Assembly (NCBI GenBank): GCA_027474245.1
Contig: CM049887.1
Coordinates: 20,751,762-20,815,761 of the forward strand
DNA from: Spheniscus humboldti
Taxonomy: Eukaryota
DNA: 64,000 nucleotides
Reading direction: 5' to 3'
The notes beneath the pieces were generated by a model, which had not been told where the DNA came from, did no database searches, and saw only the letters and a list, made by a program, of their open reading frames with translations. Below, in pieces: positions 24,989 to 64,000 of this stretch (positions are counted from its first letter, which is position 1; every line of letters starts with the position of its first letter). The position numbers and the translations under genes are program-made.

Positions 24989-25030
24989 TTATCTATTTGA
25001 TAAAAACTGCCTAATAATGGTCTGAATTAC

Positions 25031-29625: not shown

Positions 29626-30014
29626 CTGTTCAAGCTTTTGTAAGAGTGGATCGCTGTGATCGTATTTATTCTGACCATCCACTTCACCATGGACAAAGTC
29701 TGTTTTAGAGGCTTCTACGTTATATGCTGCTGCTGGAAAAGATGTTTCAGTGGTATATTGCTGAAGTGTACAAGAGCTGCCAGGCTCTTCTTCACACAAG
29801 GAGTCATCACTTACAGAACAGCTGTCTGAAAGATGCAACACTTCAGCAGGGAAAGCTGTGATGTTTTCAGGTCCGGATAATAAATTTCCTTTGTTGATTT
29901 TCAAACTGGTAAAACTAGGATCTAATAAGACTCCAGCACGGGAAGTATCGGACATCCAATGTGCAATGAAGTTTTGTTCGCTACTCAGATCTTCAACAGT
30001 TGACATCTTGTAAA
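29626..30014 (-). CDS. CENPJ: CENPJ first coding exon. ATG at 30004-30006: MSTVEDLSSEQNFIAHWMSDTSRAGVLLDPSF...PLLQKLEQ
   Basis: Minus-strand acceptor cag at 30015-17; start codon ATG at 30006; donor GTAAAA at 29624-29625. The N-terminus matches human [35 protein letters not shown]...PLFKKLEQ. Confidence 0.85.
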
Positions 30015-31294: not shown

Positions 31295-31450
31295 CTGCGA
31301 GCCAACCAAAAGAGCTGGCAGGGCTGAAGCTGACCCGTCCCGGGGAGGCGAGGAAGGACGAAGGGATTCCCCCAAAGGTCGCCGGTGGGGAGACGAGCAC
31401 AGCCACGCTCCTCAGCCGAGCCGAGCGGCCAGGCCCAGCGCCTCCCTTCC
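31295..31450 (-). other. CENPJ: Putative CENPJ non-coding exon 1 (5' UTR)
   Basis: Minus-strand donor CGCAG|GTACTG at 31295/31294, inside the CpG island upstream of the coding exon. The TSS position is a guess. Confidence 0.3.
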
Positions 31451-31999
31451 CCCACGGACACGGACACTGCCCCAGCCCGCGGCACCGCGACACCCTCACA
31501 GAGGACGCCCTAAGTGCGCCGCCGGGTCCCACCGCTCCCCGGGCCCCAGGCACCCGCACCACGACAGCTCCGACCCGCAGCCCCTCACAGGTACCGGGGC
31601 GGCAGCACCGGAACCGCTCCTCAGGCCGCTTCCGCAGCAACACTGCGCTCTGGCCGCTACCCCTCTATTACAAACCTGCCGCCATCGCACAGCCTCCCGG
31701 CGCCGCAGGCTGGGCACCGCCCCAGCGCCGAGCATGCTGGGAGTGGTAGTCCCAAGCCGCCGCCTTCCCCGCCCAGCTGCGAGGCGGTTCTTCGGCGCTC
31801 GAACTACAGCTCCCAAGAGCCTCAGCGGCGAAAAGACCGTTGGTGGGCCTCAACAGTGAAGTACTACACCTACAGTAGCCGCTGCCCCGGTTCCTGCCCG
31901 GGGCTGTCAGGAGCGGGAAGAGGTGGCGGGGATCCTTTCAGGCTCCTGGGCCTGCCCCTCGCTCCTGAGGACGGCCCGCAGGTGGCGGCGGCTTCCGGG

Positions 32000-32188
32000 T
32001 CCTCCCCGCGTCGCCGCTGGTGGCCCTTCTGGGAGACGGGGTTTCTCTTCGGGCGGCGCTGCTCCCGGAGAGGCAGAAGGCCGTATGTGCGCAGTGTTCT
32101 TCAGCGGCTGTCCCGGCATGGTGTGTGAGGAGATTCTCGTCTAGTGAGCTGTCCGCAAGCCTTTCGAGGTGTAGTGTTTTCTGCAGGG
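32000..32188 (+). other. PARP4: Putative PARP4 non-coding exon 1 (5' UTR)
   Basis: Candidate donors GAG|GTGTAG at 32168 and GGG|GTGAGG at 32188, at the 3' edge of the CpG island. The first coding exon (38907) begins at an AG acceptor, so an upstream 5' UTR exon is required. TSS unknown. Confidence 0.3.
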
Positions 32189-35100
32189 GTGAGGCTTTGG
32201 ACTTTTCGTGCGCTTTTATTGCGGCTACTTGCACTCTTTTAATCTTTAAATAGCTGCAGTAAGGGAGGAGCAGAAAGATAAATGGGCAAAAAGCATCACC
32301 TGGCTTTCTGACGTTTTGTGCTTTAGGCACGCTCTATCTTACTGAGCGAAGTTAGTGTTTTCCTCTAAACCCCACTCAGTGGCAGAGCATCACGCTCCAA
32401 AAACTTGTGGTACGTCGCAGCCTGTGACCTGTTTTTGCAGCTGTTGTGGGCAAGTACAAAACCGAGCTCTAGGTTGTATAAACCCAGGACAGCCCTTTCA
32501 GTCGCCTACTACTAGTTTTAATTTCCGCTGTTACTTTCTGTAGTTCCACAGGGCTGTTTCTGCTAAACTTTCTACCATCTTTCCTGCACTTTGGTTTTGC
32601 CAGTTATGAATATATTGTCCACATGATTGTCCTCGGACTGGATTCTGCATTAACAGTGAGAAGCTACTGTGCTAGAAAATGCAAGGATTTGTACTTGTGC
32701 TTTTTTAAAGCACAGCATCACATTCAGTCCCTTTGACATCTCTAGTAGGAAAATACAGTTGAGGTTTGTTTTCAGTTTACCTTCACACTGAAGGCCTTAC
32801 AAGACTACAGATTATTCATGGTCTATTGTTGGATGATAAAAATTGATTTTTTGGGTCCCTCTCTGTGCTAAAAATATAATCCATTGCTAATGATGGTGTT
32901 GAATTTGTGGTTTGATCATGAAGTACAAGCTCGTGTGCTTGTGTGAAATCCTTTTGAGGCTATTGGGGCCTTATGGATCTCCACCAACACAAATTAAAAT
33001 TGTGAGAATTAAACCAGTGATAATTGTCAGCAGTTCCACTTTGCATAACTTCCTTATCTGGTGCTGCAACAACACAGTATTCCAGTTATAAAAGTGTTTA
33101 TCAGCAGTTAATTAATTCTCAACACACAGATTAAATACAATAGTTTTATATTCTGATTTTGAATTTTGGAAATTTTGCCATTCAAAAAGAGTAAAACCAA
33201 ACACTGCTAAAATTCCTTGAGAAGTTTGGTTCTCTAGGGAAATAGGAGAAGAGAAGCTACTATTCAGTGGTAGCATTCATCAACAGTGAAAGAGAATAAA
33301 ATCTTCACTGAGGGGAGAGAAAAGTTGGTGGGGACAGACTTTAAACAGGTTTAACTCAATTTCCTGCTCTCTGTCGGGTATTCCAAAGTTCACTTATGCT
33401 TTAACAGTGACAATTTCCTCCTGCTCCCAAGTACAGCGAGGGTTACCGCCCCTTATTGTGCAGTAGACTGCACTTCGCTCGGTTTATTTCTTTGTCTGGG
33501 TTCCTGTCCCTTCGGGCATTTTGCAGAGACATACGAGTGTGTCCTAGCCCTTCCTACCTACAACACCCAGGCTCTCCAGTTGTACCTCACGCTGTTGGGG
33601 AAGGAGGAAGATCCTTCAGGGAGGGCAGCTGCCTGAACAGGTGAGTGTAAACGATTTGGCTCTCTCAAAATCTAAAGAGAAGAGTGGGATCAGGGGTCAC
33701 TTAATACCTCTTGTGCTGAGAACAGAGAAGGGGGTGTGTCTCTGCAGACAGACTTGGAGACAATGAATCCCTCAAGTTTATGTGCATACCTTTCTGCTTA
33801 CTGGCTGATCTACGGCTTATTTAATGATCAGTTCTCAGAAGAATTTTTTTCTCAGTTCTTAGCAGCTTGATTTTCATAAGCAAATGTAATATGAAATACT
33901 TCTGTGGAGTTTTGCACCACACGTAGCTACCAATCTCAGTTGCTTCTGGTGTGTTCTGGATGACATATGGATGTATAGGTAGGGCTGATGCTTGCAATTG
34001 CTTGTATGTATTTCATTGCCTTCTAATAAACTTTTTGTTTTGGCTGTGCAAATAGAGTTCATTATTTCCTGAGGAGACAACTTCTGGTGATACTTAGCAG
34101 TATCCAGAATCTGCTTTAGAGAATATATTGAGAAAACTAGTGCACACAGAGCTCTAGTGAAGAGGAAGGCAGTGCCCAGATCTATACTATGGTTATTAAA
34201 GGAAGCCTTTAGCAGTGGCACGTTTGCCCTTATATATGCCTCAAATTTATCTGTCTTGTTTGTGACAAGAGTCAAAATAAAGTTGATAAAAGCAGCTTAA
34301 AATAAGACTTTATACCACAAAGTACAGCTTCTTAAAGGTACAGTTTCCCACATAGCCAAGTTATAACAAGGTTGCATCATAAAAGATTCTTATCACCTCA
34401 GATAACATAGTATATTGTGAAAACCTCTTAGTTAAAATATGGAGAGTTGTTTTTTGTGTGAGCAGAGAGTACTTCTATGCCAAAAGCACTGCTAATGACA
34501 TAGAAAACAAAAACAGGAGCCCCAAAATATAGGTATATAATGACATCATATGCCCTTTGATCCGCTATCTGCCTGATATGCACGTATTACCATTACAGAG
34601 TTGCCAGTTCTATCAGGTGTATAGTGCAGTAGATGATTTGGGCCCTTCCTATAGATTACCTTTCTGAGATAAAATTACACAGATGTGTATAAAATTGTGT
34701 CTGATAGCATTTCCAGGTTATCATGAAACCCCAAATTCAAATTAATTATGTTGCTCTCTCTCCTTGACTACTTATATTTTAGCTAATAATTTAAGTTCTT
34801 CCATGGTAGCTGGCCATCTGATTCCTTTTTTACTGCACTGAAGAACAACTTTACTTGCATACATTGAAAATCAAATAGGCCACATTCCTTAAATGTAGTA
34901 TGGGTAACATACTCTAAATCTCACCCTAAAATTACCTCTGGCTAACGTGTTTCCATTTTTTTATCTGAAGCCTTATCCTAATCATCTGCTCTAAACTTGG
35001 GTCCTTGTTAAATTGATCACACAATAATCTTATATTAGATTGTGAAGTGCTGTATACTAATTGTTAAGGCAGCAGAACCAATTGGGTAATTAAATTATTT

Positions 35101-35758: not shown

Positions 35759-37625
35759 TATCATAGAATCATAGAATAGTTTGGGTTGGAAGGGACCTCT
35801 AAAGGTCATCTAGTCCAACCCACCTGCCATGGGCAGGGACATCTTCAACTAGATCAGGTTGCTCAGAACTCCGTCCAACCTGACCTTGAATGTTTCCAGG
35901 GACGAGGCATCCACCACCTCTCTGGGCAACCTGTGCCAGCGTTTCACCACCCTCAGCGTAAAACATTTCTTCCTTCTATCTAGTCTGAATCTACCACCCT
36001 TTAGTTTAAAGCCATTCCACGTTGTCCTGTCGCAACAGGCCCTGCTAAAAAGTCTGCTGCCATCTTTTTGATAACCCCCTTTAAGTACTGAGAGGCTGCA
36101 ATAAGGTCTCCCCAAAGGCTTCTCTTCTCCAGGCTGAACAACCCCAACTCTCTCAGCCTTTCTTCATAGGAGAGGTCTTCCATCCTCCTGATCATTTTCG
36201 TGGCCCTCTTCTGGACTCGCTCCAACAGGTCTGTGTCTTTCTTATGCTGAGGGCTCCAGAGCTGCATACAGTACTCCAGGTGGGGTCTCACCAGAGCAGA
36301 GCAGAGGGGCAGAATCACCTCCCTCGACCTGCTGGCCACGCTGCTTTTGATGCAGCCCAGGATACGATTGGCCTTCTGGGCTGCGAGCACACATTGCTGG
36401 CTCATGTCCAGCTTTTCATCCCCCAGTACTCCCAAGTCCTTCTCGGCAGGGCTGCTCTCAATCCCTTCATCCCCCAGCCTGCATTGATATTGGGGGTTGC
36501 CCTGACCCAGGTGCAGGACTTTGCCCTTGGCCTTGTTAAACCTCATGAGGTTCACATGGGCCCACTTCTCGAGCTTGTCCAGGGCCCTCTGGATGGCATC
36601 CCGTCCCTCTGGCGTGTCGACCGCACCACTCAGCTTGGTGTCATCTGCAAGCTCGCTGAGGGTGCACTTGATCCCACTGTCTATGTCCTTGATGAAGATA
36701 TTAAACAGTACCGGTCCCAATACGGACCCCTGCAGGACGCCACTCATCACCAGTCTCCATCTGGACATTGAGCTGTTGACCACTACCCTCTGGATGCGAC
36801 CATCTAACCAATTCCTCACCCACCGGACAGTCCACCCATCAAATCCACACCTCTCCAGTTTAGAGAGAAGGATGTTGTGGGGGACCGTGTCAAAGGCCTT
36901 ACGGAGGTCCAGATAGATGACATCTGTAGCCCTTCCCGTGCCCACTGATGTAGTCACTCCATCACAGAAGGCCACTAGGTTAGTCAGGCAGGACTTGCCC
37001 TTGGTGAAGCCATGCTGGCTGTCTCAAATCACCTCCCTGTCCTCCATGTGCCTTAGCATAGCTTCCAGGAGGATCTGTTCCATGATCTTCCCAGGCACAG
37101 AGGTGAGACTGACTGGCCTGTAGTTCCCCGGGTCTTCCTTTTTTCCCTTTTTAAAAATGGGGGTTATGTTTCCCCTTTTCCAGTCAGTGGGAACTTCAGT
37201 GGACTGCCACAACTTCTCAAATACGATGGGTAGTGGCTTAGCAACTTCATCCGCCAGTTCCTTCAGGACCTGCGCATGGATCTCATTGGGTCCCATGGAC
37301 TTGTGCACCTTCAGGTGCCTTAGATGGACTCAAACTTGATCTTCTCCCACAGTGGGTGGCTCTTCATTCTCCCAGTCCCCGCCTTTGCCTTCTGTGGCTT
37401 GGGCGGTGAGGCTCAAGCACTTGCCAGTGAAGACTGAGGCAAAAAAGTCATTGAGTACCTCCGCCTTCTCCATGTCCTGGGTAACCAGGTCTCCTGTTTT
37501 GTTCTGGGGACATTTTTTTTGTCCACGTTTTCCCTCATCTTCCTTTTATCCCCGACGTACCTATAGAATCTTTTCTTGTTGCCTTTGATGTCCCTGGCCA
37601 ACTGCCATTAGCGGTTTGGCTTGGA
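35759..37625 (-). mobile_element. CR1 LINE, 5'-truncated, about 1.9 kb, antisense in PARP4 intron 1
   Basis: The complement of the (ATTCTATG)n tail lies at 35761-35778. Minus-strand ORFs 36001-36975 ([69 protein letters not shown]..., RT), 37024-37308 ([25 protein letters not shown]...) and 37413-37601 ([14 protein letters not shown]). Confidence 0.85.
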
Positions 37626-38906: not shown

Positions 38907-39039
38907 GAGGGCAATGGCAATCTTTGCAAACTGTGTGTTCTTTATTAAAGTTAAATACTTAGCCATTCAGGAAAAGAGCAGGCTGAAAGCATGCATAAAA
39001 GAAAATGGTGGAGTAGTTAATTTTGTGCTTAATCACAAG
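38907..39039 (+). CDS. PARP4: PARP4 first coding exon. ATG at 38914: MAIFANCVFFIKVKYLAIQEKSRLKACIKENGGVVNFVLNHK (BRCT domain)
   Basis: Acceptor aacag at 38905-06 and donor AAG|GTAAGT at 39039/40. Matches the human PARP4 N-terminus MVMGIFANCIFCLKVKYLPQQQKKKLQTDIKENGGKFSFSLNPQ. Confidence 0.85.
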
Positions 39040-43364: not shown

Positions 43365-43485
43365 ATGTGGAAGACCTGTCATCTGCTGAAAATAAACATG
43401 CCACAAAGAAAAATCAAAACGATTCCAACCTTACTGTTATTGAAGACAGTGGGAGAAGAATTGAGTCCAAAGTGGGGACTCTTAG
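43365..43485 (+). CDS. PARP4: PARP4 coding exon (DVEDLSSAENKHATKKNQNDSNLTVIEDSGRRIESKVGTL)
   Basis: Acceptor ctgcag at 43363-64 and donor AG|GTAAAA at 43485/86. Phases link both neighbours (G+AT=D; AG+A=R). This is a low-conservation linker region. Confidence 0.6.
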
Positions 43486-45254: not shown

Positions 45255-45368
45255 GTTAACTCCAAGGGAACCAAAGATTTTGTAGTTATTGAATTACAGT
45301 GTTCCCAAAAGCATTACAAGTTTCCGTTTCGACTGTATGCACACTTCAGTGCATCAAATGGCACAAAG
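45255..45368 (+). CDS. PARP4: PARP4 coding exon (VNSKGTKDFVVIELQCSQKHYKFPFRLYAHFSASNGTK)
   Basis: Acceptor catttag at 45253-54 and donor AAG|GTATGA at 45368/69. Matches human VGMEGGQEAVVVELQCSRDSRDCPFLISSHFLLDDGMET. Confidence 0.8.
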
Positions 45369-46119: not shown

Positions 46120-46264
46120 AATAATAAACAATTCGTAACTAACTGCTGAAGAAGTAAGAGAAAAGTACGAGACTTTTATTGCAGACTTGAAGAGCCAGGA
46201 TTTCCTGCTCAAAGAAACTTTTCCACCAGAAGCAGAATCTTTAGCTTCTACAAAATTGCAAAAG
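46120..46264 (+). CDS. PARP4: PARP4 coding exon with an apparent +1 frameshift: NNKQFVTN / AEEVREKYETFIADLKSQDFLLKETFPPEAESLASTKLQK
   Basis: Acceptor ttacag at 46118-19. The first 8 codons are in the expected phase (NNKQFVTN, human RRQFAIKK). The rest matches human only in the +1 frame (EEVREKYETFIADLKSQDFLLKETFPPEAESLASTKLQK vs ...EYFENYIEELKKQGFLLREHFTPEATQLASEQLQ). The shift coincides with a tandem AACTAACT at 46137-46144. The phase-0 join to the next exon requires a GC donor (AAG|GCTTGT at 46264/65). Confidence 0.6.
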
Positions 46265-47604
46265 GCTTGTACAACTTGCATGTTTACACTTTTCTGTCCT
46301 TAATGATTTGTTTTAGTTTCCAATTTTCTGAATGTGGTAAACATTGTCTTGATTATAGTGATACAGCCATAGGTTAAGGGAAACTGTTTATATGTAAATG
46401 TTTTGAAATTTTTTTTTTCAGAATATTGTTTGAATGTTCCCAGTACTTCAACACATTAAAAGCAAACGTAGTCATATTCATTATAGTTTTTTTTTCTCAG
46501 TAGATGCATTATCAACTAATGTGATACCTAAAAAGTTATGTGCTGACATAGCAAACAGAATTGTTGTGTGATGTATGACTTTAATCGTCAAATTATTCTG
46601 CACACTATACAGATGTCACAGGCTTGATGTAGAGCATATTGGAATCAGTAACAGGATTTCCCCCAATGGCAATAGCAGTTGGATTCTGCCCCCTTAAATA
46701 CTCTTCAGACAATGTTTTACTGCTATTTAAAATGGTTGTAGTGTGACAGAAATTTTTTCCCATTTACGTTCTCACTGTACTTTATCTACTTCTCTCTTTC
46801 ACCATGGTTAGCTTCTATTATAGGGCACAACTGGCACATAGATTATATCCAGCAATGTTGAAAGGCCCACATATGTCCTCTAGTGATCTCAGAAGCTGTG
46901 TGGTTGATGCCCTATAAACAAGTAATGTAGAATGTCCAAACTTGTGTGAGAATTGTTTAATGGCATCAAGTTTAATGGCAGCTTGTGCAGTTGTAGAACA
47001 GTGAGAAAAAGCTCCAGTAAATGTTTTAACAATGTTCCTCAGAAGAACATGAGAAAATCTGTTTTCACAACTCTCTCTGCTGTATTGATTTTCATGGCCT
47101 CTCTATTCTCCTGTAGCTTTGCTGCTCCAATTTTTTATTTTCACAGTAATAATGTCTTTCCCACCAGAGCTTTCTGAACTAGAGATCTAGTGTAATTTGT
47201 TAGAGATGTTATAAAACTGGCCATTTTGAACCATCTGTTCTTTTACCAGCTGTGCAAAAAAGGAAATGGCTGGGGTGTGCAGACTATTATGTCCATGTAT
47301 CTGATAGTACAATATACTGATAAAGGTATCAAGTAAATCAACTTCTGTCTTCTCCAAGACTTTATGTCTCTGTTTTCAAGAGAGGTCGTGGCCATGCAGC
47401 CTGCCGTGCTCTCCACTTGAAAGAATTTATAAAAGCAAACCTTCCCTTCAGTTTGATGAGACTGAAGAAGTTACACTAAGCATGAATGAGCATTGTGCAC
47501 TTTATTGTTTATGGGAATAGGAAAGTTTAATTATCTGTGTAAGAACTTCACTGCCATGACTTGCATCTTTGTCTTTTCACTGAACTGTGTTTATTTTACT
47601 ACAG

Positions 47605-47742
47605 TTACTTCTAGAAGAAGCCATCCATTCAAGTGCTATATGTCAGGAAGTTAGTGATTTTGTGGAACTGATCTGGGCAGAAGCTATCGGCCACCTGCAT
47701 AGTTTACTACTTGAATCAGTAAACAACATAAGCCTAAATGAT
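47605..47742 (+). CDS. PARP4: PARP4 coding exon (LLLEEAIHSSAICQEVSDFVELIWAEAIGHLHSLLLESVNNISLND)
   Basis: Acceptor tactacag at 47603-04 and donor GAT|GTAAGT at 47742/43. Matches human LLLEEVMNSSTLSQEVSDLVEMIWAEALGHLEHMLLKPVNRISLND. Confidence 0.85.
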
Positions 47743-49737
47743 GTAAGTTAATTCTTTTTAATCTGTGAGGATGAATACATAAATGCTGTTAGAAGTAATT
47801 TTTTCCCAGCAAACATGTCTGTTGTGTTTCAGATTGGGATTGGTAATTACACTTTTGATACTCTTGTACTTCAAGAAATCCATGCTTCAGAAATTTTTGT
47901 CTCAAATTTTGCTTTAGAATCATGACACTAAAATCATGCTGTACTCCCTAGGACAGATGGCTGTCTTTTCCATTTCATAGCAATTTACACAATTCTTATG
48001 GGAGGATCCCTTGCATGAGATAAGTCAAGTCACATAAGAAGATAGGCATAGAAGGCAGTGCATAATAGCAGGTTACTGTCTCCTGCCAGTGTGCTTCAGC
48101 CATACTTTAGTCAGCCATTCTCTTTTAATGGAAAAATAGTTTTAATTATAGTCCCTGTCTGCATTATCAGATGACACATGTAATTAACACACAGCTACTG
48201 TTCAAGGCCTTTGGATATTACAGCTGTTACTCTTAATAACTGCCTATCCACCCCTTTGTTAAGTCTATGGTTTATTTAATCCCGCTTGCCCACATACCTC
48301 AATTCTTTTGCTTTGCTCCGTTGGAGCAAACCAGGACAGCATTTAAGAGGATAATGTTTATTCATGTAATTTAAGTTCATATAACTTAACAAATGGCCAA
48401 CTGTTTAAGATGAGAGTTTTGTTCATCTCTGTTATCACTGAAGGCAAAATTACCTGAAGATTATGTTGGTTTTAAATTGGAAGAGCTTTGCCAGTAGAAG
48501 GTCCCCAATTTTGGAATTACTTTGCCCTAAATCTTATTACATGAAACTCACTGTTGATGCTCTTCAACTGATCTATGGTAGAAGAGTATTCCTTTCACTT
48601 TTTGATGTGGAAATAATACACAGTTATGTAGGTTCTGGTGAGTAAGTAGTACATTAGTAATATTGTATATGTGAACGTGGAGACGTAGTGAGTGCATCGC
48701 GTAAATCAGCAAAGACATAAGGAAATGCTGTTTGTGGTAAATGCTTTTTATGAGGTGCAATTGTTTGGATATTAAGATTCCTAACATATTTCAGGTAGGT
48801 GAAATTTGATAAAATTTGATAAATAATGTTCAATCATTGGTAGCTTTTGCAAGAGCTGAACCATAGACCTAAAAGACTCTGTATCTCAATGCATCGATCT
48901 GTAAGAATATGATAAAACTGTTTTCGCTAACTCTTCCCACTTATAATTAATTTGCAAGAGAAATAGCATTTGTATTGAAAGAAAAAAAACCTCTGGATTT
49001 TTGAAACACAGTAATTAAGAAGTGGGTTGCTGTTCAGTTAGATTAACCCTCTATTTTTTTCCCAAAGGCATTTGTGAGACAGAGACCAGTCTTGGATCAA
49101 TGATGAACTGCAGTAAGACGTTGCTATGCAGCCTCTAATGTCAACATTTTACTAGCTGTTGCCTGTGGTTCATGTAAATTAAAAAGCATTTTGCCTTTTT
49201 CCTCCTGCCTTGAGAAGACAAAATAATATAGAGCATTCTGTGAAAAATTTCCAATTGAGAAGGAATATACAGATACAAGCAAATCTATATCCTGTCTGTC
49301 TGGACAAACTGTCTAAAATTAATCATTGCTTTCATTTCATTTGTAGGTTGCACTTTATAAATAGGACTTCTCTATGTATTTTAGGATGAACTTGTGCACT
49401 TAGACATTTAGTAAGAAATTTCTTATCTTCTACTTTCTGTTATTGCGTTAATGCATTAAAGCTGACAATATGAATCAACAAGATGTTAAGGAACATTATC
49501 TGTCAATCTGATTCATATTCAATTTTATTTCAGGGAGGTTATTTTACTGTCTCTTAACTCTGCTTGAGGTACTTTGCAAGTAGCCCAGTATAAGGGCTGA
49601 CTAATATCAAACTTTTAAATACTGTTTTCATATCCTAGCTGCAAGAAAATATTTTGTGGGTATTACACTAACAAGAGTTAGTTTTATTTCAGTGTGGAAT
49701 TAAATGATCTATTTTCAGTATTTACTGCTTTGCGCTC

Positions 49738-50357
49738 TGTCCTGGTTTCAGCTAGGTTAGAGTTAATTGTCTTCCTAGTAGTTAGTATAGTGCTGTGTTT
49801 TGGATTTAGCATGAGAACAATGTGATAACACACTGATGTTTTAGTTGTTGCTAAGCAGTGTTTGTACTAAGTCAAGGACTTGTCAGCTTCCCATGCTCTG
49901 CCAGAGAGGAGGTGCACAAGAAGCTGGGAGGAAGTATAGCCAGGACAGCTGACCCAAACTGGCCAAGGGGTATTCCATACCATATGACGTCATGCTCAGT
50001 ATATAATCTGGGGGGAGTTGGCCGGGGGGCAGTGGTCACTGCTTGGGGACCGACTGAGCATCAGTCGGCAGGTGGTGAGCAATTGCGTCACTTGTTTGGC
50101 TTTTTCCCCCCGGGTTTTTGTTTCTCTCTCTTTTGTTTTACTTTCCATTACTGCTGCTGCTGCTGCTACTACTACTACTATTATTATTATCATCATCATC
50201 ATTATTATTATTAATATTTCAAGTATTAAGCTGTTCTTATCCCAACCCACAAGTTTTCTTACTTTTGCTCTTCCGATTCTCTCCCCCATCCCACCAGAGG
50301 CAGGGGGGGAGGGTGAGCAACCGGCTGTGTGGTGCCAACTGGGATTAAACCATGACA
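49738..50357 (+). mobile_element. Solo LTR-like element (ERV-derived), copy B, flanked by a CGCTC target-site duplication
   Basis: TGT...ACA-bounded, about 620 bp, homologous to 22922-23473 (see copy A). The 5-bp direct repeat cgctc sits at 49733-49737 and 50358-50362. It contains a compound trinucleotide microsatellite. The six-frame ORFs at 49858-50410 are artefacts of the repeat. Confidence 0.6.
50151..50213. repeat. Compound trinucleotide microsatellite (CTG)5(CTA)4(TTA)3(TCA)4(TTA)n
   Basis: Direct reading: ctgctgctgctgctgctactactactactattattattatcatcatcatcattattattatta, inside LTR copy B. Confidence 0.9.
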
Positions 50358-50412
50358 CGCTCTTTCTGCAATTTTGCGATAGCTTTCAGTTTAATAATCT
50401 CTTCTTTTAAAG

Positions 50413-50586
50413 GTGAGCAAAGCAGAAGGTATTTTACTCCAAGTAAAGAATGCAATGGATGAGGGAGCTGTGGAGGTGGCACTACAAGAGATGATGATGG
50501 AATTCTATCAAGTTATACGTCACAAAACTGAAGTAGACTGTAAAGTTTCCAAAAAGCTGTTATCTAGAAAACAGGACCTGTGTCAG
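50413..50586 (+). CDS. PARP4: PARP4 coding exon (VSKAEGILLQVKNAMDEGAVEVALQEMMMEFYQVIRHKTEVDCKVSKKLLSRKQDLCQ)
   Basis: Acceptor ttaaag at 50411-12 and donor CAG|GTAACT at 50586/87. Matches human VSKAEGILLLVKAALKNGETAEQLQKMMTEFYRLIPHKGTMPKEVNLGLLAKKADLCQ. Confidence 0.85.
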
Positions 50587-52650
50587 GTAACTTTTCCAGA
50601 TTGCTAATAAGCCCTGATCTGCACTGTGCTACACCAGTTTTGAAAGTACTCACTAGATAAATTGACAGGATACTTTGCACAGCTAGTCACAGGCTATCAG
50701 TTTAAAAAAATAATGTATTGGAATCTTATGAATAGAGTAACGCTTATGGGGGGAATTCAGTGTTTTGAACAGGAAGACCAGTTGCTGTCCAGATGGTGAC
50801 AGGAGTTTCCATTGCAATCATTGTTGTGATGACATCTTCAGCTGGATCAAATGAGAACCATGGAACTGTTGTTATCATCCAGCTGACCCTAGCAACTACT
50901 CCAGCATATACATAATCAGTTTCTATTGATTATCTTAAACGATATACAAAATACATCTAAGCCATTTTAACTATATGCAAAGACCGTTCTGTGTACCCTT
51001 TCCTTTCCTGCATATGCAGGAACAGTTTCTAGAGACTATTTAGAATTACCAATCTATGTATGGCTTCGTCTGTTCCTACTTCTACAGCACAAACTGCTTG
51101 GGGGAGTTCCCTGGACTGCCTGGATTGTTAGTGCAAGAAGTTAGTCAGCACATCTAAACAGATAACATCTTTCAGTTGGTCTAAGCACAGCTGGCCTGCC
51201 TAGGGGAATCTCCAAGGATCTCTCCCATAGGTCCCCCTCAGCTCCTGTGTTACTTCATTTTTAAGCTGGCTAGGAGTTCAGTCAATTGGGAGTTCAGTTA
51301 CTCTGCTGCAAGCCAGTCCATTGTCTCATCTTTGCAGAAACTAGCTGGGAAATGCTCAGCCTGCCAGGGGGATTGCGAACGAGGTGTGCTGAGTGCCCAC
51401 ACAGATGCAGCGCTTGCACCCAGCAGCAAGGGCTGGCTGCTTCATAAGGGCAGGCAGATGGGGTGGGGGTGGAAGTGAGCAAGGCCAGGGCACTTACACC
51501 ACTGGCAGCGGCTCTAGTCCCATGGTACCCAAATAGGAAGAGCAGAGCAGGTGACAGTGACTGCTGGTGATAGTAGCCAGGGTCAGTCCAGCTTGCCTCC
51601 TCATTAGGGCTTGTCTGGCAGGTCCAAGGTCAAACCGGGAACTTGAGTCCACAGGATCTGTGTCAGAATCAGGGAGGTGGGAGGCTGGATGCAGGCATAT
51701 TGGCAACATAGCTCAGTCGAGAGACCAAAGGCAAGAGCCTAAGCTCAAAGGCATGTCTTGAGCAGGGGCAGGAATCTGCTGAGTCTTCTCACAGCTCTCT
51801 TTCAAGGCTCCACAGCTGCCCTGTCAAAGCTGGCCCTGAGCCCAAGCAGCCAGGCCCTCTGGAGAGGCAAGAGGCAGTCAGAGCTCTGACAGCTACTTCA
51901 CTCTTCTAACTGTAGAGCAAACTCAGATTTCCTCCTTTTATTGTGATTATAATGTATATTCCATAGATTCTGCCAGAGATACCTCTTTCTTTTGGCAAAG
52001 GATATCCAGAAGTCAGTCTTCTGTAAGTTACAAAATATAAAGGGGGAGAGGTAAAGGGAACGAAGCTCCTTACTGTTCTAAAAGAACAAATGTTAATAGT
52101 GCATTTAACCTTGGAAATCTTTTGATAATTAAAACCTTTTGACATTTCTGGTATCAAAAAATTACTAAGTCTCAAAGCTTTCCCATGGCTTAGTGAAGTG
52201 TAGCATTACAATCTTTTCAAAGTTAGATGTCCTTCTTTCTCCTGATCTGAGAAAATTACATGGGTACCTTGTGCTACTGCCCTAGCTGGATAGTGGCCTT
52301 GGGGACAAAATGACAGATTCTAACAAGTAAGAATTGCCTCATAAGCAAAATCAAAATGGTAACCAAGCACAAATACTGGTTTGTGGAGCTGTTACAAGCA
52401 GGCTCCATCCAAAGCTTGATTTGGAGTTGTACAGAAGCACTTTAACACTGTTTTTCATATACCTTGTTCTTCTGAATTGTTTTCATGGGATTCTACAGCT
52501 GTTTGCTCTTGTTCCAAACTGTATCTAACAAGTGGAAATGTTGAGTATTCCATTTCATTGTTACTACACTGTAACTTTATATGTCTGGTTTGCATGTTTC
52601 CTTAATTAAAATGTAACAAGTATTCATAAATTTCTGTCTGTATTTTCTAG

Positions 52651-52811
52651 CTAATCAGAGACATGCTTACTATACGTGAAACAAATATGTCATACCCAAA
52701 CCCATCATCTTTGGCCAAATACTGGGCTCTGAGGTGCAAGATTGAAGCTGTTGACTCAACGAGTTATGAATTTCTCAGTGTTGAACAACAAGTGTTAAAA
52801 AACAATTACAA
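52651..52811 (+). CDS. PARP4: PARP4 coding exon (LIRDMLTIRETNMSYPNPSSLAKYWALRCKIEAVDSTSYEFLSVEQQVLKNNY)
   Basis: Acceptor ttctag at 52649-50 and donor AA|GTGAGT at 52811/12. Matches human LIRDMVNVCETNLSKPNPPSLAKYRALRCKIEHVEQNTEEFLRVRKEVLQNH. Confidence 0.85.
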
Positions 52812-53694
52812 GTGAGTGTTTAATAGTTATGCAATGATTCCAGTAAAATTGTGCACCAAGGTATGGTGCACAAAATCCTCTAAAGAGGACTGAATTAACA
52901 GGTTCTGTTACTGTGCAGCGTTGATTGTGCTAATGGGATTGCAGAGCTGGCATATTTACCATAACCTATACTAGAACAAAATGGAAGTAAATTTTAAAAA
53001 ACCTGAAAATTATAATATTGTCAATAAATATTGAGATAATCTGAATCTTTTGTGTAATTACAAGAAGGACAGGACAAGAATCTTGGTGACAGCTCTGTCC
53101 TGTAGCTACTGTAGGTAAAATGCATAAATCTTGCTGGAGGTGGGATTGCAACCCGAGTTTTCCTCCTCTCAAGTGTATTTGTTAACTGGGAAGTCTTTCT
53201 TAATTGGGAATTACTACCTCCAGATAGCCTGAACTGTGATGCTAAGATATTTGTAGTTCAGCCAAGACAGTGAGGTCTCTGAGTATTCTCAGTAAAATAA
53301 TTTTTAGTACAAGATAAATTTGCTGGCAATAATTTATATACTTACAGATTCTGAGCTGCATAGAGTTAGATGAGGTTTTATATGTCACATCTTTGAATTT
53401 TGATCCCAAAATGTCAAATAAGATAATTTCATATGACTTTAAGCACGAAAACACATTTTCAGTTTCTCCCTAAAAGTCTAAATAGGTCTTGAACTTAGTC
53501 ATTAAGTTTTTTATGTCTCTGGTGATTGTTCTCTTATGCTATTTTTTTCTTTAACAATTGCCACCCAAATTGCTAACAAAAAAAAGAAAAAGTTGAATGT
53601 TACTTTGAGATTTAGAATAAGACGTTATCTTTTAGCAGTGTATTGATCTTAAATGCACTTTCTAAGTCATGAGATCTCAAAGATCATTTCAAAT

Positions 53695-53841
53695 TTCTTG
53701 CAGTGACTGTCCAGTGAGAATTTTACAAGTGTATAGGATTGGCAGAATAACTGAAACAGCAGAATTTCTGAGCAGTCTTGGAAACATTCGATCCTTATTC
53801 CATGCATCGTCTGTGCGCAACTTCATGGGAATTCTTTCCAG
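53695..53841 (+). CDS. PARP4: PARP4 coding exon, start of the PARP catalytic domain (NDCPVRILQVYRIGRITETAEFLSSLGNIRSLFHASSVRNFMGILS)
   Basis: Acceptor cttgcag at 53693-94 and donor AG|GTAAAA at 53841/42. Matches human SPVDVLQIFRVGRVNETTEFLSKLGNVRPLLHGSPVQNIVGILC. Confidence 0.85.
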
Positions 53842-55123
53842 GTAAAAATTTACATTCCCTTTTTTGTGACACTGAATCGGGCTTAACTGTATTCTTAAAT
53901 GTATTTTGACTTTTTTTTTTTTTAATGAAGCTCTTTTGCATTATATTTAACCTGATTTTTACTGTTAACATTTATATGAACATACATATACTTCTACAGA
54001 TCTCTGGAAGGAAAACCAATCTTTTGTAATGATAAATTTAATTATTTTCCAGGTAGATTAGACTTAAGATATCCAAGTTATTTGGATATGATGGTGAGGA
54101 CTGTGGTTTAAATCCAGATGAAAGATGACAAAATGGAGAGAGTAGGAGAGTAATGGCTGTGTGGAAAATTTATTCTGTTTTAGGAAAGAATTGCATTGAC
54201 AATGTCCTCCTTCCACTTCTATACATTATTTCCCCACAACTACTGTATTTGACATATTTTTAGATTATCATAATTTCCTGGAATAACAGAATATCTAGTT
54301 CTATGACTGAATACCATGGATTCACTCAGGCATGGTAATAATGCTAAAATAATATAACTTCTAGTAGCCTGACATATTTAAATCCTCATCATAGCATGTA
54401 TGCAATGAATACCAACCACTGAAAATTTAAGGATATTTTAAAAAAACATATCTGATACATAACACGATCAGAATGAAAGTACCTCAAAAGTCATATTAGC
54501 ATTCTGTTTTCCTTATACTGCAGATTTTAATTGTAAGTTACAAAACTGTTGAACTTATTTAAATATCGTACATTCTTTATATATAAAATGTTTTCTGTGG
54601 GCATCAATCGGTAGTAAATCAAATGTCTCATAAACAGTGTAAGGATGGTATCTCTACACTTAATAGGTTTGCAAACCAAACATTGGAAAAGTTTCCAAGT
54701 ATCCATTCCACAGCATTCTACCTTTAAAACTCATACTTTCTTTTTCTTAGCTACAAAAATTTCATACAGTTTTTTGAAATTGAATACAGCACAGTTGCTA
54801 GAAATGTAGAACTACTCATCTAATAACCAAAAAATTATTTTGAATGTTTGGCAATTAATCTGGAAAACACATTGTTTTTCTGCTAAATGAAGAAAAGCTA
54901 AGTCTTCATTGCTTATGTAATCAGTGTCTTGGTGATTAATATGACTGGGATTTTTTTTTTTATGAATAGACTTTATTTTCCTTGCGTGTCTATGGATGGT
55001 TTCTGTAAAGTGTATTTTGTTTTAATCCTCCGTGGTTCGTAATTGCACCATGTGTATGAGCCTACATGCTATATGCAAAAGTATTTTGTACTTTATTCAT
55101 TGTGTGACCTTCTTTTTCTCTAG

Positions 55124-55222
55124 AGGACTCCTAATGCCAAAAGTGGTTGTTGAAGATCACGGCCTGGAAAGAACTGACGTTGGGAATCTGGGCAGTGGCA
55201 TTTACTTCAGTGATTCTGTTAG
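55124..55222 (+). CDS. PARP4: PARP4 coding exon, PARP catalytic core (RGLLMPKVVVEDHGLERTDVGNLGSGIYFSDSV)
   Basis: Acceptor ctctag at 55122-23 and donor AG|GTCTGA at 55222/23. Matches human RGLLLPKVVEDRGVQRTDVGNLGSGIYFSDSL, the PARP signature G-S-G-I-Y-F. Confidence 0.9.
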
Positions 55223-55428
55223 GTCTGAATAACAACAGTATCTTTGTTCTTTGTGTATTCTTTTTACTTTTCAAATTAAGTAGATATGTTTAATACTTTT
55301 AAAGTAATTTAATTATAAAGTTTATTCCTATCCATCTGTTCAGAAGTACTTGTGTATCCTTAAACTCCTATGATGTTTACATTAACAAAAATTTTAATAA
55401 AATGTCTATGATCTTTCTTTACATATAG

Positions 55429-55612
55429 TGCCAGTATTAAGTATTCTTCACCCAGTGAAATGGATGGAACCCGACTCCTGGCAGTTTGTGACGTGGCGCT
55501 GGGATCCTGCTTAGATTTGTATGAACGAGATTATTTGTTAAGTAATGCACCATCAGGTTATGACAGTGTGCATGGAGTCCGTAAAACAGCAGACATCTCT
55601 TCAGATTTTGAG
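55429..55612 (+). CDS. PARP4: PARP4 coding exon, PARP catalytic (SASIKYSSPSEMDGTRLLAVCDVALGSCLDLYERDYLLSNAPSGYDSVHGVRKTADISSDFE)
   Basis: Acceptor atatag at 55427-28 and donor GAG|GTACTG at 55612/13. Matches human STSIKYSHPGETDGTRLLLICDVALGKCMDLHEKDFSLTEAPPGYDSVHGVSQTASVTTDFE. Confidence 0.9.
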
Positions 55613-56354
55613 GTACTGATCCTGCAGTATGGGGCACTTGAAAAGGCACCAAATTTTGGATTTATTATACCACTGATAGATAACAGAATACATGTAACCT
55701 GCATTTCAGTTCAGACACTAAGTCACTAGACAGTAATGCGTAAAATCACTTTTGTCTGTCTTGTAGCCTGTAAAGTGCGTATAAAACTTCTAAGCCTCTA
55801 AATTGCTATTTGTAAAGAATGCTTGCAAGAAAACAATACTTAAAAGAAAGATGTAAATATTATATGATATCATAACTAAATCATCATATAAATATCTGGT
55901 CTGTGATACTTAAATTGTTATTTGGAAGGAATATTCTACTTTGTATGGAATAAGAAATCATTACTATGGAAGGTTCATTGTTTTGTAAATTAATCCAGCT
56001 GATAAAAATCCATCCTTATAGGTTGGTACTCTAAGGCAGGGATGATAGCTACAGTTGCTCTCTAGATATCCACCAGTTTTTTACTTTTTTTGTTCTTAGT
56101 TATTTTGAGGAATGATTGTGCTTTATGGGGAAGAGGAAATATAAGGAGTGTGGAGAATACAAAGTGAGAAGATAAGAGATGCAAGTGGTAGTGATACAGA
56201 GAGATTAGGAGAGTGAAAATAAAAGCTGTCAGATTCTTACTATTTTTCAGAAATGGTGTGTCATTTAGGTTCACCTCTTAATCAGTTTGCATTGTTTTAG
56301 ATATTATCTACAACTTTGTTTTTATTGTAAAATACCTTTCTTTGTTTCTACCAG

Positions 56355-56512
56355 GATGATGAATTTGTTGTGTATAAAACCTGTCAGGTTAAAATTAGAT
56401 ATGTTGTTAAGTTTTGCCTTGCTGAAGATCAAATAAAAACATTTCAGCCTGCGATTGGGGTGGACCTGGAGCATGATAACAGTGAGCCAAAGTCGCAATG
56501 TCATTTACAGCG
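56355..56512 (+). CDS. PARP4: PARP4 coding exon with an apparent +1 frameshift in a G5 run: DDEFVVYKTCQVKIRYVVKFCLAEDQIKTFQPAIG / VDLEHDNSEPKSQCHLQ
   Basis: Acceptor ctaccag at 56353-54. The first 35 codons are in phase (human DDEFVVYKTNQVKMKYIIKFSMPGDQIKDFHP). After ggggg at 56457-56461 the conserved reading continues only in the +1 frame; in phase it hits TGA at 56475. The phase-consistent donor is CAG C|GTGAAG at 56512/13. Confidence 0.6.
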
Positions 56513-57042
56513 TGAAGTAAGAAATGTTTTCTGTTTATATAGTGACTTGCTTCCAGAATTTCCTAAATACTTCTCAGAACCCTTTTTAGAGTACTTGTAT
56601 GAAGATAACATAATAAAAAATAATTTTTAGTTTATTTGCAGATGTTACCGAACTAGTGATTACCATGTGGCATCTGTGTAGCATCTGTTTAACAGATTTC
56701 CTATAGGCATAATTACCAACAGCAGTTGCAACTCTTCCTGTCACAGTGTGTTTCAAGAGAAGCACAGGAAGCACTTTTGCATAAAACATCAGATGGTCTT
56801 TAAATAATACAAATGCAAGGTTCTAAACAAAGACCTTGTAAGACCTTAAAGAACTATCATGAACTCATGATCCCTTAGACAGATGGCAACACAAGTATTC
56901 ATAACAGAAACTGAGTGTTACTTTTGTGTTGTGAATTGCATAAACAAACGTGGGCCATTGATATAGGATTAGATTCAATCATCTTTCCCAAATGTATATT
57001 TCAAAAAATATCTTTTTAATCTTCCGTAAACTCTTTGTTTAG

Positions 57043-57167
57043 GCTATGCATTACCAAATGCAAATCTTTCGAATCCTGTAAAAACTGGTCTTCAGGACAG
57101 ATTGGGAAATCTTGTCCCTCTGGGAGGTGTTTATATCAAGGCAAGGATAATAGACTTTGTAGCACAG
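57043..57167 (+). CDS. PARP4: PARP4 coding exon (RYALPNANLSNPVKTGLQDRLGNLVPLGGVYIKARIIDFVAQ)
   Basis: Acceptor tttgtttag at 57041-42 and donor CAG|GTAGAG at 57167/68. Matches human YQLPDAKTSSSTKAGLQDASGNLVPLEDVHIKGRIIDTVAQ. Confidence 0.85.
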
Positions 57168-59278: not shown

Positions 59279-59304
59279 GTTAAAGAAAAGAAACAAGCAC
59301 AATC
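59279..59304 (+). CDS. PARP4: PARP4 26-nt micro-exon (VKEKKQAQS, last codon split). Its donor GTTGAG lies at the first bases of the CR1 insertion.
   Basis: Acceptor ttcatag at 59277-78. The frame continues human IKEKEEAQQ. The only join that preserves colinearity with human ...AQQEYLEAVTQGHGAYLMSQDAP is 59304|61953 (TC|G = S). Confidence 0.65.
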
Positions 59305-61950
59305 GTTGAGTGTTTCGATTGTATAGAGCTCAACGATTGTGATGATGATACGGTCGAGTGTTTATGGGTAAGGATGAGGGGGAAGGCCAACGAGGCAGAT
59401 ATCCTGCTGGGAGTCTGTTATAGACCACCCAACCAGGAGGAAGGGGCGGATGAAGCGTTCTACAAGCGGCTGGCAGAAGTCTCTCGATCGCTAGCCCTTG
59501 TTCTCGTGGGGGACTTCAACTTCCCAGACATCTGCTGGAAATACAACATGGCAGAGAGGAAGCAGTCTAGGAGGTTCCTGGAGTGTGTGGAAGACAACTT
59601 CCTGACGCAGCTGGTAAGGGAGCCTACCAGGGGAGGTGCCTCGCTTGACCTGCTGTTTACAAACAGAGAAGGACTGGTGGGAGACGTGGTGGTCGGAGGC
59701 CGTCTTGGGCTTAGCGACCATGAAATGGTAGAATTCTCGATTCTCAGTGAAGTAAAGAGGGGGGGCAGCAAAACTGCAACCATGGACTTCCGGAGGGCGG
59801 ACTTTGGCCTGTTCAGGACGCTGGTTGAGAGAGTCCTTTGGGAGACGGTCCTGAAGGGCAAAGGGGTCCAGGAAGGCTGGACGATCTTCAAGAAGGAAGT
59901 CTTAAAGGCGCAGGAGCAGGCTGTCCCTGTATGCCGTAAAAAGAACGGGTGGGGAAGGCGACCGGCCTGGCTGAACGGGGAGCTTTTGCAGGGACTCAGG
60001 AAAAAAAGGAGAGTTTACCGCTTGTGGAAGAAGGGGCAGGCGACCCAAGGAGAGTACAGGGATCTCGTTAGGTCGTGCAGAGAGGAAATGAGAAAGGCAA
60101 AAGCCCAGCTGGAACGCAATCTGGCCGCTGTCGTTAAAGACAACAAAAAAAGTTTTTACAAATATATTAATGACAAGAAGAGAGCCAAGGAGACTCTCCA
60201 TCCTTTATTGGATGCGGGGGGGAACATTGTCACCGAGGATAAGGAAAAGGCTGAGGTACTCAATGCCTTCTTTGCCTCAGTCTTTAACAGCCAGACCGGT
60301 TATCCTCAGGGTACTCGGCCTCCCGAGCTGGAAGACAGGGATGGCAAGCAGGATGAACCCCCCATAATCCAAGAGGAAGCAGTCAACGACCTGCTACGCC
60401 ACCTGGATGCTCACAAGTCTATGGGGCCGGATGGGATCCACCCGAGAGTGCTGAGGGAGCTGGCGGAGGAGCTCGCCAAGCCACTCTCCATCATTTATCA
60501 GCAGTCCTGGTTAACGGGGGAGGTCCCGGACGACTGGAGGCTTGCCAATGTGACGCCCATCTACAAGAAGGGCCGGAAGGAGGATCCGGGGAACTACAGG
60601 CCTGTCAGCTTGACCTCGGTGCCGGGGAAGATTATGGAGCGGTTCATCTTGAGGGCGCTCACAAGGCATGAGCGGGACAACCAGGGGATCAGGCCCAGCC
60701 AGCACGGGTTCACGAGAGGCAGGTCCTGCTTGACCAACCTGATCTCCTTCTATGACCAGGTGACCCGCCTAGTGGATGAGGGAAAGGCTGTGGATGTGGT
60801 CTACCTGGACTTCAGTAAGGCCTTTGACACCGTCTCCCACAGCATTCTCCTGGAGAAGCTGGCGGCTCACGGCTTAGACAGGTGGACTCTGCGCTGGGTC
60901 AAAAACTGGCTGGACGGCCGGGCCCAGAGAGTTGTGGTGAATGGAGTGAAATCCAGTTGGCGGCCGGTCACGAGCGGTGTTCCACAGGGCTCAGTTTTGG
61001 GGCCGGTCTTGTTCAATATCTTTATCAATGATCTGGATGAGGGGATTGAGTGCACCCTCAGCAAGTTTGCAGACGACACCAAGTTGGGCGGGAGTGTTGA
61101 TCTGCTCGAGGGTAGGAAGGCTCTGCAGAGGGACCTGGACAGGCTGGATCGATGGGCCGAGGCCAACTGTATGAGGTTCAACAAGGCCAAGTGCCGGGTC
61201 CTGCACTTTGGCCACAACAACCCCATGCAGCGCTACAGGCTTGGGGAAGAGTGGCTGGAAAGCTGCCTGGCAGAAAAGGACCTGGGGGTGTTGGTCGACA
61301 GCCGGCTGAACATGAGCCGGCAGTGTGCCCAGGCGGCCAAGAAGGCCAATGGCATTCTGGCCTGTATCAGAAACAGTGTGGCCAGCAGGAGTAGGGAAGT
61401 GATCGTGCCCCTGTACTCGGCACTGGTGAGGCCGCACCTCGAATACTGTGTTCAGTTTTGGGCCCCTCACTACAAGAAGGACATCGAGGTGCTGGAGCGT
61501 GTCCAGAGAAGGGCAACGAGGCTGGTGAAGGGTCTAGAGAACAAGTCTTACGAAGAGCGGCTGAGGGAACTGGGGTTGTTTAGTCTGGAGAAAAGGAGGT
61601 TGAGGGGAGACCTCATCGCTCTCTACAACTACCTGAAAGGAGGTTGTAGCGAGGTGGGTGTTGGTCTCTTCTCCCAGGTAACAAGCGATAGGACGAGAGG
61701 CAATGGCCTCAAGTTGCGCCAGGGGAGGTTTAGATTGGACGTGAGGAAAAATTTCTTTACGGAGAGAGTGGTTAAACATTGGAACAGGCTGCCCAGGGTA
61801 GTGGTGGAGTCACCATCCCTGGAGGTATTTAAAAGACGTGTTGATGAGGCGCTTAGGGACATGGTTTAGTGGGCATGGGGTTGTTGGGTTGACGGTTGGA
61901 CTCGATGATCTTAGAGGTCTTTTCCAACCTTAATGATTCTATGATTCTAT
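59305..61950 (+). mobile_element. CR1 LINE, 5'-truncated within the endonuclease domain, 2.65 kb, with an uninterrupted ORF2 remnant. It exactly fills a PARP4 intron.
   Basis: The 5' end ([44 protein letters not shown]...) matches the CR1 endonuclease region and the inner nested copy at 3618-3690. The RT motifs [24 protein letters not shown] and FADDTKL are present. The ORF ends ...[30 protein letters not shown]. The 3' UTR ends ttaatgattctatgattctatag at 61950. Confidence 0.9.
59374..61869 (+). CDS. CR1 ORF2 remnant (C-terminal endonuclease plus complete reverse transcriptase), 831-aa intact ORF
   Basis: A six-frame ORF of 2,496 nt with no stop. The frame is in fact open from 59305. Starts [36 protein letters not shown]...[16 protein letters not shown] (APE-type endonuclease C-terminus), then continues through the RT domain. 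An ORF this long in a CR1 copy implies a recent insertion. Confidence 0.85.
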
Positions 61951-61952
61951 AG

Positions 61953-62013
61953 GGAATATCGGAAAGCTATCAGTCAGGGTGATGGAGCTTATCTAATGGA
62001 CCAGGATGCACCG
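61953..62013 (+). CDS. PARP4: PARP4 coding exon, VIT domain (SEYRKAISQGDGAYLMDQDAP), starting immediately after the CR1 3' microsatellite
   Basis: The AG acceptor at 61951-52 is the last two bases of the CR1 tail (gattctatAG). Donor CCG|GTATGT at 62013/14. Matches human QEYLEAVTQGHGAYLMSQDAP. Confidence 0.8.
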
Positions 62014-62489: not shown

Positions 62490-62654
62490 GATATTTTTGT
62501 AATAAGTGTTGGAAACTTACCTCCGAATTCTACAGTTGTGATCAAAATCACCTATATCACTGAACTGAGTTTTCAGCATGGTTGTATCACCTTTCATATG
62601 CCTGCTTCTGTGTCACCATGGCAACAGGATAAAGCCTTAAATGAAAACACGCAG
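62490..62654 (+). CDS. PARP4: PARP4 coding exon, VIT domain (DIFVISVGNLPPNSTVVIKITYITELSFQHGCITFHMPASVSPWQQDKALNENTQ)
   Basis: Acceptor ttttttag at 62488-89 and donor CAG|GTTTGT at 62654/55. Matches human DVFTVSVGNLPPKAKVLIKITYITELSILGTVGVFFMPATVAPWQQDKALNENLQ. Confidence 0.9.
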
Positions 62655-63494: not shown

Positions 63495-64000
63495 AAGAGG
63501 TAAACAAACTATTCTATAAGCAGCTGGGAGAAGTCTCACGATCACTAGCCCGTGTTCTCATGGGGGACTCCAACTTACCAGATGTCTGCTGGAAATACAA
63601 TACAGCGGAGAGGAAACAGTCTAGGAAGTTCCTGCAGTGTGTGGAAGATAACTTCCTGACACAGTTGGTGAGTGAGCCAACTAGGGAAGGTGCCCTGCTA
63701 GACCTGTTGTTTATGAACAGAGAAGGACTTGCGGGTGATGTGATGGTTGGAGGCCGTCTTGGGCATAGCAATCACGAAATGATAGAGTTTTTGATTCTTG
63801 GAGAAGTAAGGAGGGTGGTCAGCAGAAGTGCCACCTTGGACTTCCAGAGGGCAGACTTTGGCCTGTTTAGGAGCCTGGTTGACAGAGTCCCTTGGGAGGC
63901 AGTCCTGAAGGGCAAAGGAGTCCAGGAAGGCTGGACATTCTTCAAGAAGGAAATCTTAAAGGTGCAGGAGCAGGCCGTCCCTATGTGCCGAAAGATGAGC
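63495..64000 (+). mobile_element. CR1 LINE, 5'-truncated copy running off the window end, sense orientation in a PARP4 intron
   Basis: Reads ...[161 protein letters not shown]. This is colinear with 59440-59950 of the intact copy. Confidence 0.85.

Follow-up and report, generated by a model that had tools for sequence, protein, structure and literature searches.

The window analysed here, a 64,000-nucleotide stretch of contig CM049887.1, carries on its + strand the bird PARP4 gene, which encodes the vault poly-ADP-ribose polymerase, a catalytic accessory subunit of vault particles. Three independent disabling lesions, none of them seen in the six to eight other birds compared, lie in the first 18 exons of this gene: exon 6 has lost 2 bp, exon 13 has lost 1 bp from its last codon, and an apparently young 2.65-kb CR1 retrotransposon interrupts an 87-nt exon. 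Judged from the sequence, these lesions probably mean that PARP4 has really, and recently, been inactivated in this genome, or at least that the sequenced individual carries a null allele. The copy is most likely a young unitary pseudogene, produced by lineage-specific loss. The original prediction had offered two frame-breaking indels in PARP4 as either assembly errors or an early inactivation and had leaned to the latter. This is indeed the better supported reading, mostly on evidence other than that cited at the time.

Eighteen coding exons of PARP4 were placed at 38914-62654 by tblastn, with human PARP4 and the PARP4 proteins of Phaethon, gull and loon as queries. Loon stands throughout for Gavia stellata, whose PARP4 (XP_059681234.1, 1,676 aa) is intact. 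The birds used in comparisons also included Piaya, Atlantisia, kagu, turkey, a storm-petrel (Hydrobates tethys, B10K assembly GCA_013397025.1), macaw (Ara ararauna) and blue jay (Cyanocitta cristata).

The three lesions would act together as follows. The exon 6 deletion would introduce a TGA after the first nine codons of the exon, ahead of the PARP catalytic domain, the VIT domain and all later domains. The exon 13 deletion would leave the conserved donor in the wrong phase and lead to a TAA 13 codons later, and the CR1 would interrupt the 87-nt exon further downstream. Transcripts would carry a premature stop and would either be subject to nonsense-mediated decay or allow only an N-terminal BRCT part to be made, and vault PARP activity would be lost. 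A recent date for the inactivation is inferred from the intact state of the other exons, the splice sites and the catalytic motifs, together with a ratio of nonsynonymous to synonymous substitution rates (dN/dS) that is not raised.

A 2-bp deletion breaks the frame of exon 6

Exon 6 (46120-46264; like all PARP4 features below, on the + strand) measures 145 nt in the window, versus 147 nt in other Neoaves and 150 nt in turkey. This length truly breaks the frame because both flanking exons are in phase 0: exon 5 (45255-45368) ends in phase 0 (...SASNGTK|gt) and exon 7 (47605-47742) starts in phase 0 (LLLEEAIHSS...). Read from 46120, exon 6 gives NNKQFVTNC*, with a premature TGA at 46147-46149, and the +1 frame gives TAEEVREKYETF...LQK. 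The TGA and the conserved +1 frame of the original prediction were thus confirmed, but not the AACT tandem duplication to which the break had been attributed. DNA alignment with six other birds (AACTA[AT]ACTGCT) instead revealed a 2-bp deletion at about 46141^46143 of the window, which reads GTAACTA--ACTGCT where loon and gull have GTAACTAATACTGCT and Phaethon has GTAACTAAAACTGCT. At the protein level, loon and gull read NNKQ..TNTAEE and Phaethon reads ..TKTAEE, with AACTAATACTGCT or AACTAAAACTGCT in the DNA, and the gull protein NNKQFVTNTAEE corresponds to both halves of the window exon plus one codon. The lesion is best described as the loss of two bases (AT or TA, from AACTAATACTG), with the AACTAACT tandem that is present at 46137-46144 as a by-product. 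Tandemly repeated 4-mers number 401 in the window, and this one carries no statistical weight.

The only frame-keeping route that we found for exon 6 is skipping of the whole exon. Rescue by an internal acceptor was considered and rejected, as the sole in-frame AG (46164-65) is surrounded by purine-rich sequence and has no pyrimidine tract. The GC donor of the exon (46265-46266, AAG|GCTTGT) is ancestral in birds, being kept as AAAAG|GCTTGTAC in Phaethon, kagu, Piaya, turkey and loon, while gull has GT. Since the same donor occurs in the intact, full-length PARP4 of loon, it is not a sign of decay, and the weak GC donor that had been offered in favour of inactivation does not bear on it. The Piaya PARP4 model (P0003) reads through this GC donor (QKAFMFILLQLLLEE).

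A 1-bp deletion shifts the phase of the exon 13 donor

Exon 13 (56355-56516, 162 nt), which encodes the end of the PARP catalytic domain, had been described as broken by an extra G in a G5 run at 56457-56461, followed by an in-phase stop. One G had been miscounted. The run is GGGG (56457-56460), followed by T at 56461, is identical in gull and turkey, and constitutes no lesion. A single frame is open throughout 56355-56516 (DDEFVVYK...QPAIGVDLEHDNSEPKSQCHLQRE), with DDEFVVYKTCQVKIRYVVKFCLAEDQIKTFQPAIGVDLEHDNSEPKSQCHLQRE read without a stop. Exon 13 is nevertheless broken, although not where it had been claimed to be: relative to eight other birds, a 1-bp deletion (a G lost from TGAGAGT) lies between 56515 and 56516, in the last codon and ~55 nt downstream of the G run. 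The exon end previously given, 56512, had relied on a weak GT.

In seven birds with an intact exon 13, the exon ends in ...GAGA|GTAAGA or GAAA|GTAAGA, at 163 nt and in phase 1. The window reads ...GA-A|GTAAGA, at 162 nt and in phase 0, and the macaw remnant has 161 nt. Exon 14 (57043-57167) starts with two codon bases, which are GC in every bird compared and finish an AGC codon. Because of the 1-bp deletion, the conserved exon 13 donor is out of phase with exon 14, which is then translated in the wrong frame as far as a TAA at 57079-57081.

An upstream GT (56512-56513, AGC|GTGAAG) used as the exon 13 donor would bring the frame back (HLQ-R-YALPNAN) with the loss of two residues. Donors were scored with a matrix built from 15 of PARP4's own donors. 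Real donors had a median of 8.1 (range 4.9-11.0) and the conserved exon 13 donor, retained 5 nt from this GT, scored 7.9. The GT at 56512 scored -1.4, and 63% of all PARP4 GT sites were equal or better. It was rejected as a compensatory new donor, both for this score and for its presence in storm-petrel, which lacks the deletion.

That both sites are as first described, exon 6 being broken by an AACT duplication and exon 13 by an additional G that makes a G5 run, is barely credible. Removing one AACT from the tandem would also restore the frame of exon 6, but the exon lacks 2 bp relative to loon, gull and Phaethon and shows no 4-bp gain. The G-run part is already refuted by the GGGG run and the unbroken frame.

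A CR1 retrotransposon splits the 87-nt exon

In other birds the 87-nt exon is in one piece and encodes VKEKKQAHREYRKAISQGDGAYLMDQDAP (sequence GTAAAAGAAAAGAAACAAGCACATAGGGAGTAT...GCACCG). In the window, 2,648 bp of inserted sequence (59302-61949) follow GCACA, leaving a 5′ piece of 23 nt (59279-59301) and a 3′ piece of 64 nt (61950-62013), the latter 100% identical to loon. The insert is absent at the gull, Phaethon, Piaya, storm-petrel, Atlantisia and loon loci. It lies on the + strand and contains an 831-aa open reading frame (ORF; 59374-61869) with Pfam matches to RVT_1 (E = 1e-36) and Exo_endo_phos_2 (E = 2e-7). The ORF begins inside the endonuclease domain. The insert bears a ATTCTATG tail and its 3′ end is ATGATTCTATGATTCTA, a CR1-type tail of 8-nt repeats. 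With an ORF2 of endonuclease and reverse transcriptase, 5′ truncation and a tail of 8-nt repeats, it is recognizable by sequence as a CR1 long interspersed nuclear element. An exact look-up of the ORF matched no record. The insertion is judged to be very young, at a rough estimate of under about 1% divergence, because the 2.5-kb ORF holds neither a stop nor a frameshift.

The CR1-in-exon configuration cited in the original prediction is therefore real, and it provides the strongest single argument for inactivation, since base-calling errors do not produce insertions of 2.6 kb. Read-through into the CR1 meets a stop after 8 insert codons. A splice from 59304|59305 to 61952|61953 would keep the frame, using a donor (ATC|GTTGAG) that scores -5.4, below 97% of PARP4 GT sites.

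Further CR1 copies occur in the window at 1987-5257, 6601-6959, 24046-24986, 35764-37485 and 63512-63993. Two of these share 94-95% identity with the copy in the exon, and others about 68%. Given these levels of identity, the CR1 subfamily has had several phases of activity in this lineage, something unusual for a neoavian genome.

Altered splicing as an alternative

The lesions could be real and a protein still be made, by skipping exon 6, using the GT at 56512 and splicing out the CR1; a downstream start yielding a VIT-vWA-only protein is a possible variant. We consider this quite unlikely. All three alternative joins keep the frame, the CR1 tail supplies a pyrimidine-rich tract ahead of an exonic AG, and the downstream exons are 96-100% identical to loon. 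However, the two alternative donors, at -1.4 and -5.4, compare poorly with the 4.9-11.0 of real donors, and the first of them would have to be used with the strong exon 13 donor still in place 5 nt away. As storm-petrel carries the same GT without the deletion, it did not arise in compensation. Skipping of exon 6, in turn, would delete a segment between the BRCT and catalytic domains that frog and human still have in conserved form and that comprises about 48 codons (49 residues in the intact orthologue). Loss of the protein remains the reading that we prefer.

The small deletions are unlikely to be assembly errors

The two small deletions might also be assembly or consensus errors in a functional gene, with the CR1 misassembled or spliced out, an explanation that we hold to be unlikely. 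Small deletions are a known class of error in long-read consensus sequences. The intact state of the other 15 exons, of all splice sites and of the catalytic-domain motifs speaks for this explanation, as does the lineage dN/dS, which is like that of intact lineages (see below). Both exonic deletions, however, lie outside homopolymers. The "classic G-run signature" of sequencing error that had been invoked falls, because neither deletion is in a homopolymer.

Other ORFs of the same window provided a control for indel error. No frameshift was found in about 2.7 kb of coding exons of the neighbouring CENPJ gene and the 2.5-kb CR1 ORF (about 5.2 kb together); the large CENPJ exon at 20460-22109 on the - strand is uninterrupted over 550 codons. 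A uniform error model with 2 frameshifts per 2.35 kb predicts about 4.4 in these control ORFs, giving P(0) of about 0.01. Introns were audited in four-way alignments, in which window-specific small indels stood to substitutions as 18/346 (0.052), with 4/18 of the indels in homopolymers. This ratio equals that of Illumina and Vertebrate Genomes Project (VGP) assemblies of relatives, at 0.052 for storm-petrel (Illumina), 0.046 for loon (VGP) and 0.071 for Phaethon. The CR1 is no base-calling error, and for it to be spliced out its only frame-keeping donor would be the weak one described above. On these counts, assembly indel error appears an unlikely source of the lesions.

Conservation and selection outside the lesions

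The other 15 PARP4 exons have the lengths of their orthologues (modulo 3) and canonical splice sites. Sixteen other exons had been called clean; this holds for 15, and the 87-nt exon, split by the CR1, is the one for which it does not. No nonsense substitution was found in the PARP4 exons of the window read in loon's frame. Parsimony counts on the window branch gave 26 nonsynonymous and 14 synonymous substitutions, with a dN/dS of 0.50 and a dS of 0.029. A dN/dS analysis of this lineage had been proposed as a check. The value is not raised, and it fits a recent loss, in keeping with the apparent youth of the CR1, and a working gene alike.

Several points weigh against inactivation. On paper the frame could be kept at every lesion (by skipping exon 6, using the GT at 56512 or splicing out the CR1), and only the 5′ half of PARP4 lies within the window. 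Either small deletion could be an error in the consensus, or else an allele that is heterozygous or rare, and the intron audit bounds assembly indel error only loosely, up to about 0.9 per kb. The dN/dS of 0.50 compares with 0.34-0.47 in intact lineages (Fisher p = 0.59) on a short branch of 40 substitutions, and it is marginally below neutrality (p = 0.05), in the company of exons free of nonsense substitutions. Selection would appear to have been at work along the greater part of the branch, as would be expected after a very recent loss and, equally, of a functional gene. Weighed against the three lesions, these points leave recent inactivation as the preferred reading.

Identity and surroundings of the locus

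When the frame-repaired PARP4 translation was searched against Pfam, BRCT (3-90), PARP (403-580) and VIT (643-750) domains were found; the window ends before the vWA and MVP-binding parts. Exon 1 (38914-39039), identified by tblastn with loon, Phaethon and gull and equal in length to that of loon, carries the ATG at 38914 and the beginning of the BRCT domain. The last PARP4 exon seen is exon 17 (62490-62654), in the VIT domain; the loon gene has about 16 further exons, whose counterparts would lie past 62654 and mostly outside the window. CENPJ lies head-to-head upstream on the - strand, and the same arrangement is found at the kagu, macaw and blue jay loci. Because of these domains and of the synteny with CENPJ, we read the locus as the orthologous, syntenic, intron-containing PARP4 and not as a retrocopy.

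The 17 exons tabulated match loon in length and phase, except for the lesions and a 3-bp in-frame deletion in exon 3 (43365-43485). This deletion is common to the window and storm-petrel only and serves as a small clade marker. Nucleotide identity to loon is 92-100% for the PARP4 exons seen, with a lower value, 88%, for exon 3. Across PARP4 including introns, identity is 90% to storm-petrel, 87% to Phaethon and 86% to gull. The large CENPJ exon shows 96.9% protein identity to Adélie penguin, and the CENPJ locus 95.8% DNA identity to gentoo penguin across 21 kb. These values would place the host of the window in the clade of penguins and tube-nosed seabirds, nearest penguins, and make a penguin and a storm-petrel the closest relatives available for comparison. 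Protein searches and cluster listings yielded no PARP4 of a penguin or of the window's species; no hit of the protein searches exceeded ~980 aa, which may account for the lack of full-length PARP4 clusters among them.

CENPJ itself is intact and spans about 16673-30015 on the - strand, with further exons at 30015-29629, 27600-27436, 19025-18888, 18065-17889 and 16882-16673. The Adélie penguin CENPJ model (P0165) includes a translated polypyrimidine tract (LIFFFIFFLNYT). Upstream of CENPJ, about 7 kb from the PARP4 ATG, a GC-rich stretch at ~31200-32300 contains several long GC-rich ORFs and is probably a CpG-island promoter.

Within PARP4, an intronic block of 619 bp (49741-50359), 54 bp upstream of the exon 8 acceptor, has no counterpart at any of the eight other bird loci. 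It resembles a solo long terminal repeat, with TG...CA ends and CGCTC on both flanks, and also holds CTG/CTA/ATT triplet runs.

PARP4 in other birds

In storm-petrel (locus L006), exon 1 (about 3320-3445) carries a 1-bp deletion (CCA-TCAGG), a 4.1-kb deletion without N at its junction near 9188 has removed exons 5-7, and the exon 15 acceptor is changed from CAG to CTG. This gene, in the closest relative with a PARP4 locus available, looks like an independent pseudogene. In the chromosome-level assemblies of kagu (L005), macaw (L008) and blue jay (L011), only PARP4 remnants are found between CENPJ and MPHOSPH8; most exons are missing, and kagu exons 6 and 7 have 5- and 7-bp deletions. NCBI lists PARP4 as "LOW QUALITY PROTEIN" in these three birds and also in Amazona, Geothlypis and Sylvia borin. 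This pattern suggests old losses of PARP4 in kagu and in parrots plus passerines. Full-length PARP4 proteins are annotated in loon, a cuckoo, a rail and galliforms, the locus having been checked for loon only.

The absence of catalytic exons 11-12 in gull was considered as another loss and rejected, as these exons fall in a 1.7-kb run of N. The gull PARP4 model (P0005) spans this gap with a stretch of translated intron where exons 11-12 should stand.

It is an even bet whether PARP4 has been lost independently many times in Neoaves, in which case the window would represent the earliest stage, storm-petrel an intermediate one, and kagu, parrots (macaw) and passerines (blue jay) the remnants. 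On the evidence of these loci, other birds can clearly do without the vault PARP, a point in favour of a real inactivation in the window. Repeated loss in Neoaves is a more interesting lead than a single pseudogene. If true, birds would form a natural knockout series for the vault PARP, in which one could test whether MVP, TEP1 and vault RNA follow, and dated independent losses could be correlated with ecology, pathogens and other vault components. To our knowledge, there is still no agreed function for vault particles and their PARP subunit. The locus also holds two cautions for annotation: a phantom base in a manual read made a false frameshift, and gene models that silently choose weak splice sites can mask real lesions.

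Comparison with known systems

The literature that we searched for PARP4 loss in birds or penguins yielded nothing relevant. Vault RNA has been reported missing from many bird genomes, which the authors of that report attributed to fragmented assemblies. In the PARP family, PARP15 was lost in five mammalian lineages and PARP10 in carnivores (Daugherty et al. 2014, PMC4038475). The same study reported PARP4 in all vertebrate genomes examined, found that it evolves rapidly in mammals, and proposed an antiviral role for it. The present case resembles these losses as a recurrent inactivation of a non-essential, probably immunity-related PARP member, and differs in that PARP4 loss in birds is not described there.

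The window gene shares with intact PARP4/vPARP of loon and human its exon-intron structure, its phases, the GC donor, the BRCT, WGR-like, PARP and VIT domains, and CENPJ as neighbour. It differs from loon PARP4, which has neither the exon 6 deletion nor the exon 13 deletion nor a CR1 in the 87-nt exon. The storm-petrel gene is alike in carrying disabling lesions in an otherwise conserved PARP4, but its lesions are its own and none is common to the window. The kagu, macaw and blue jay remnants occupy the same syntenic slot and have likewise lost the coding frame, but they are old and heavily deleted, with few exons left in loci reduced to about 11-17 kb. As no exon or splice site is missing from the window copy, it would appear to stand at a much earlier stage of decay than these remnants.

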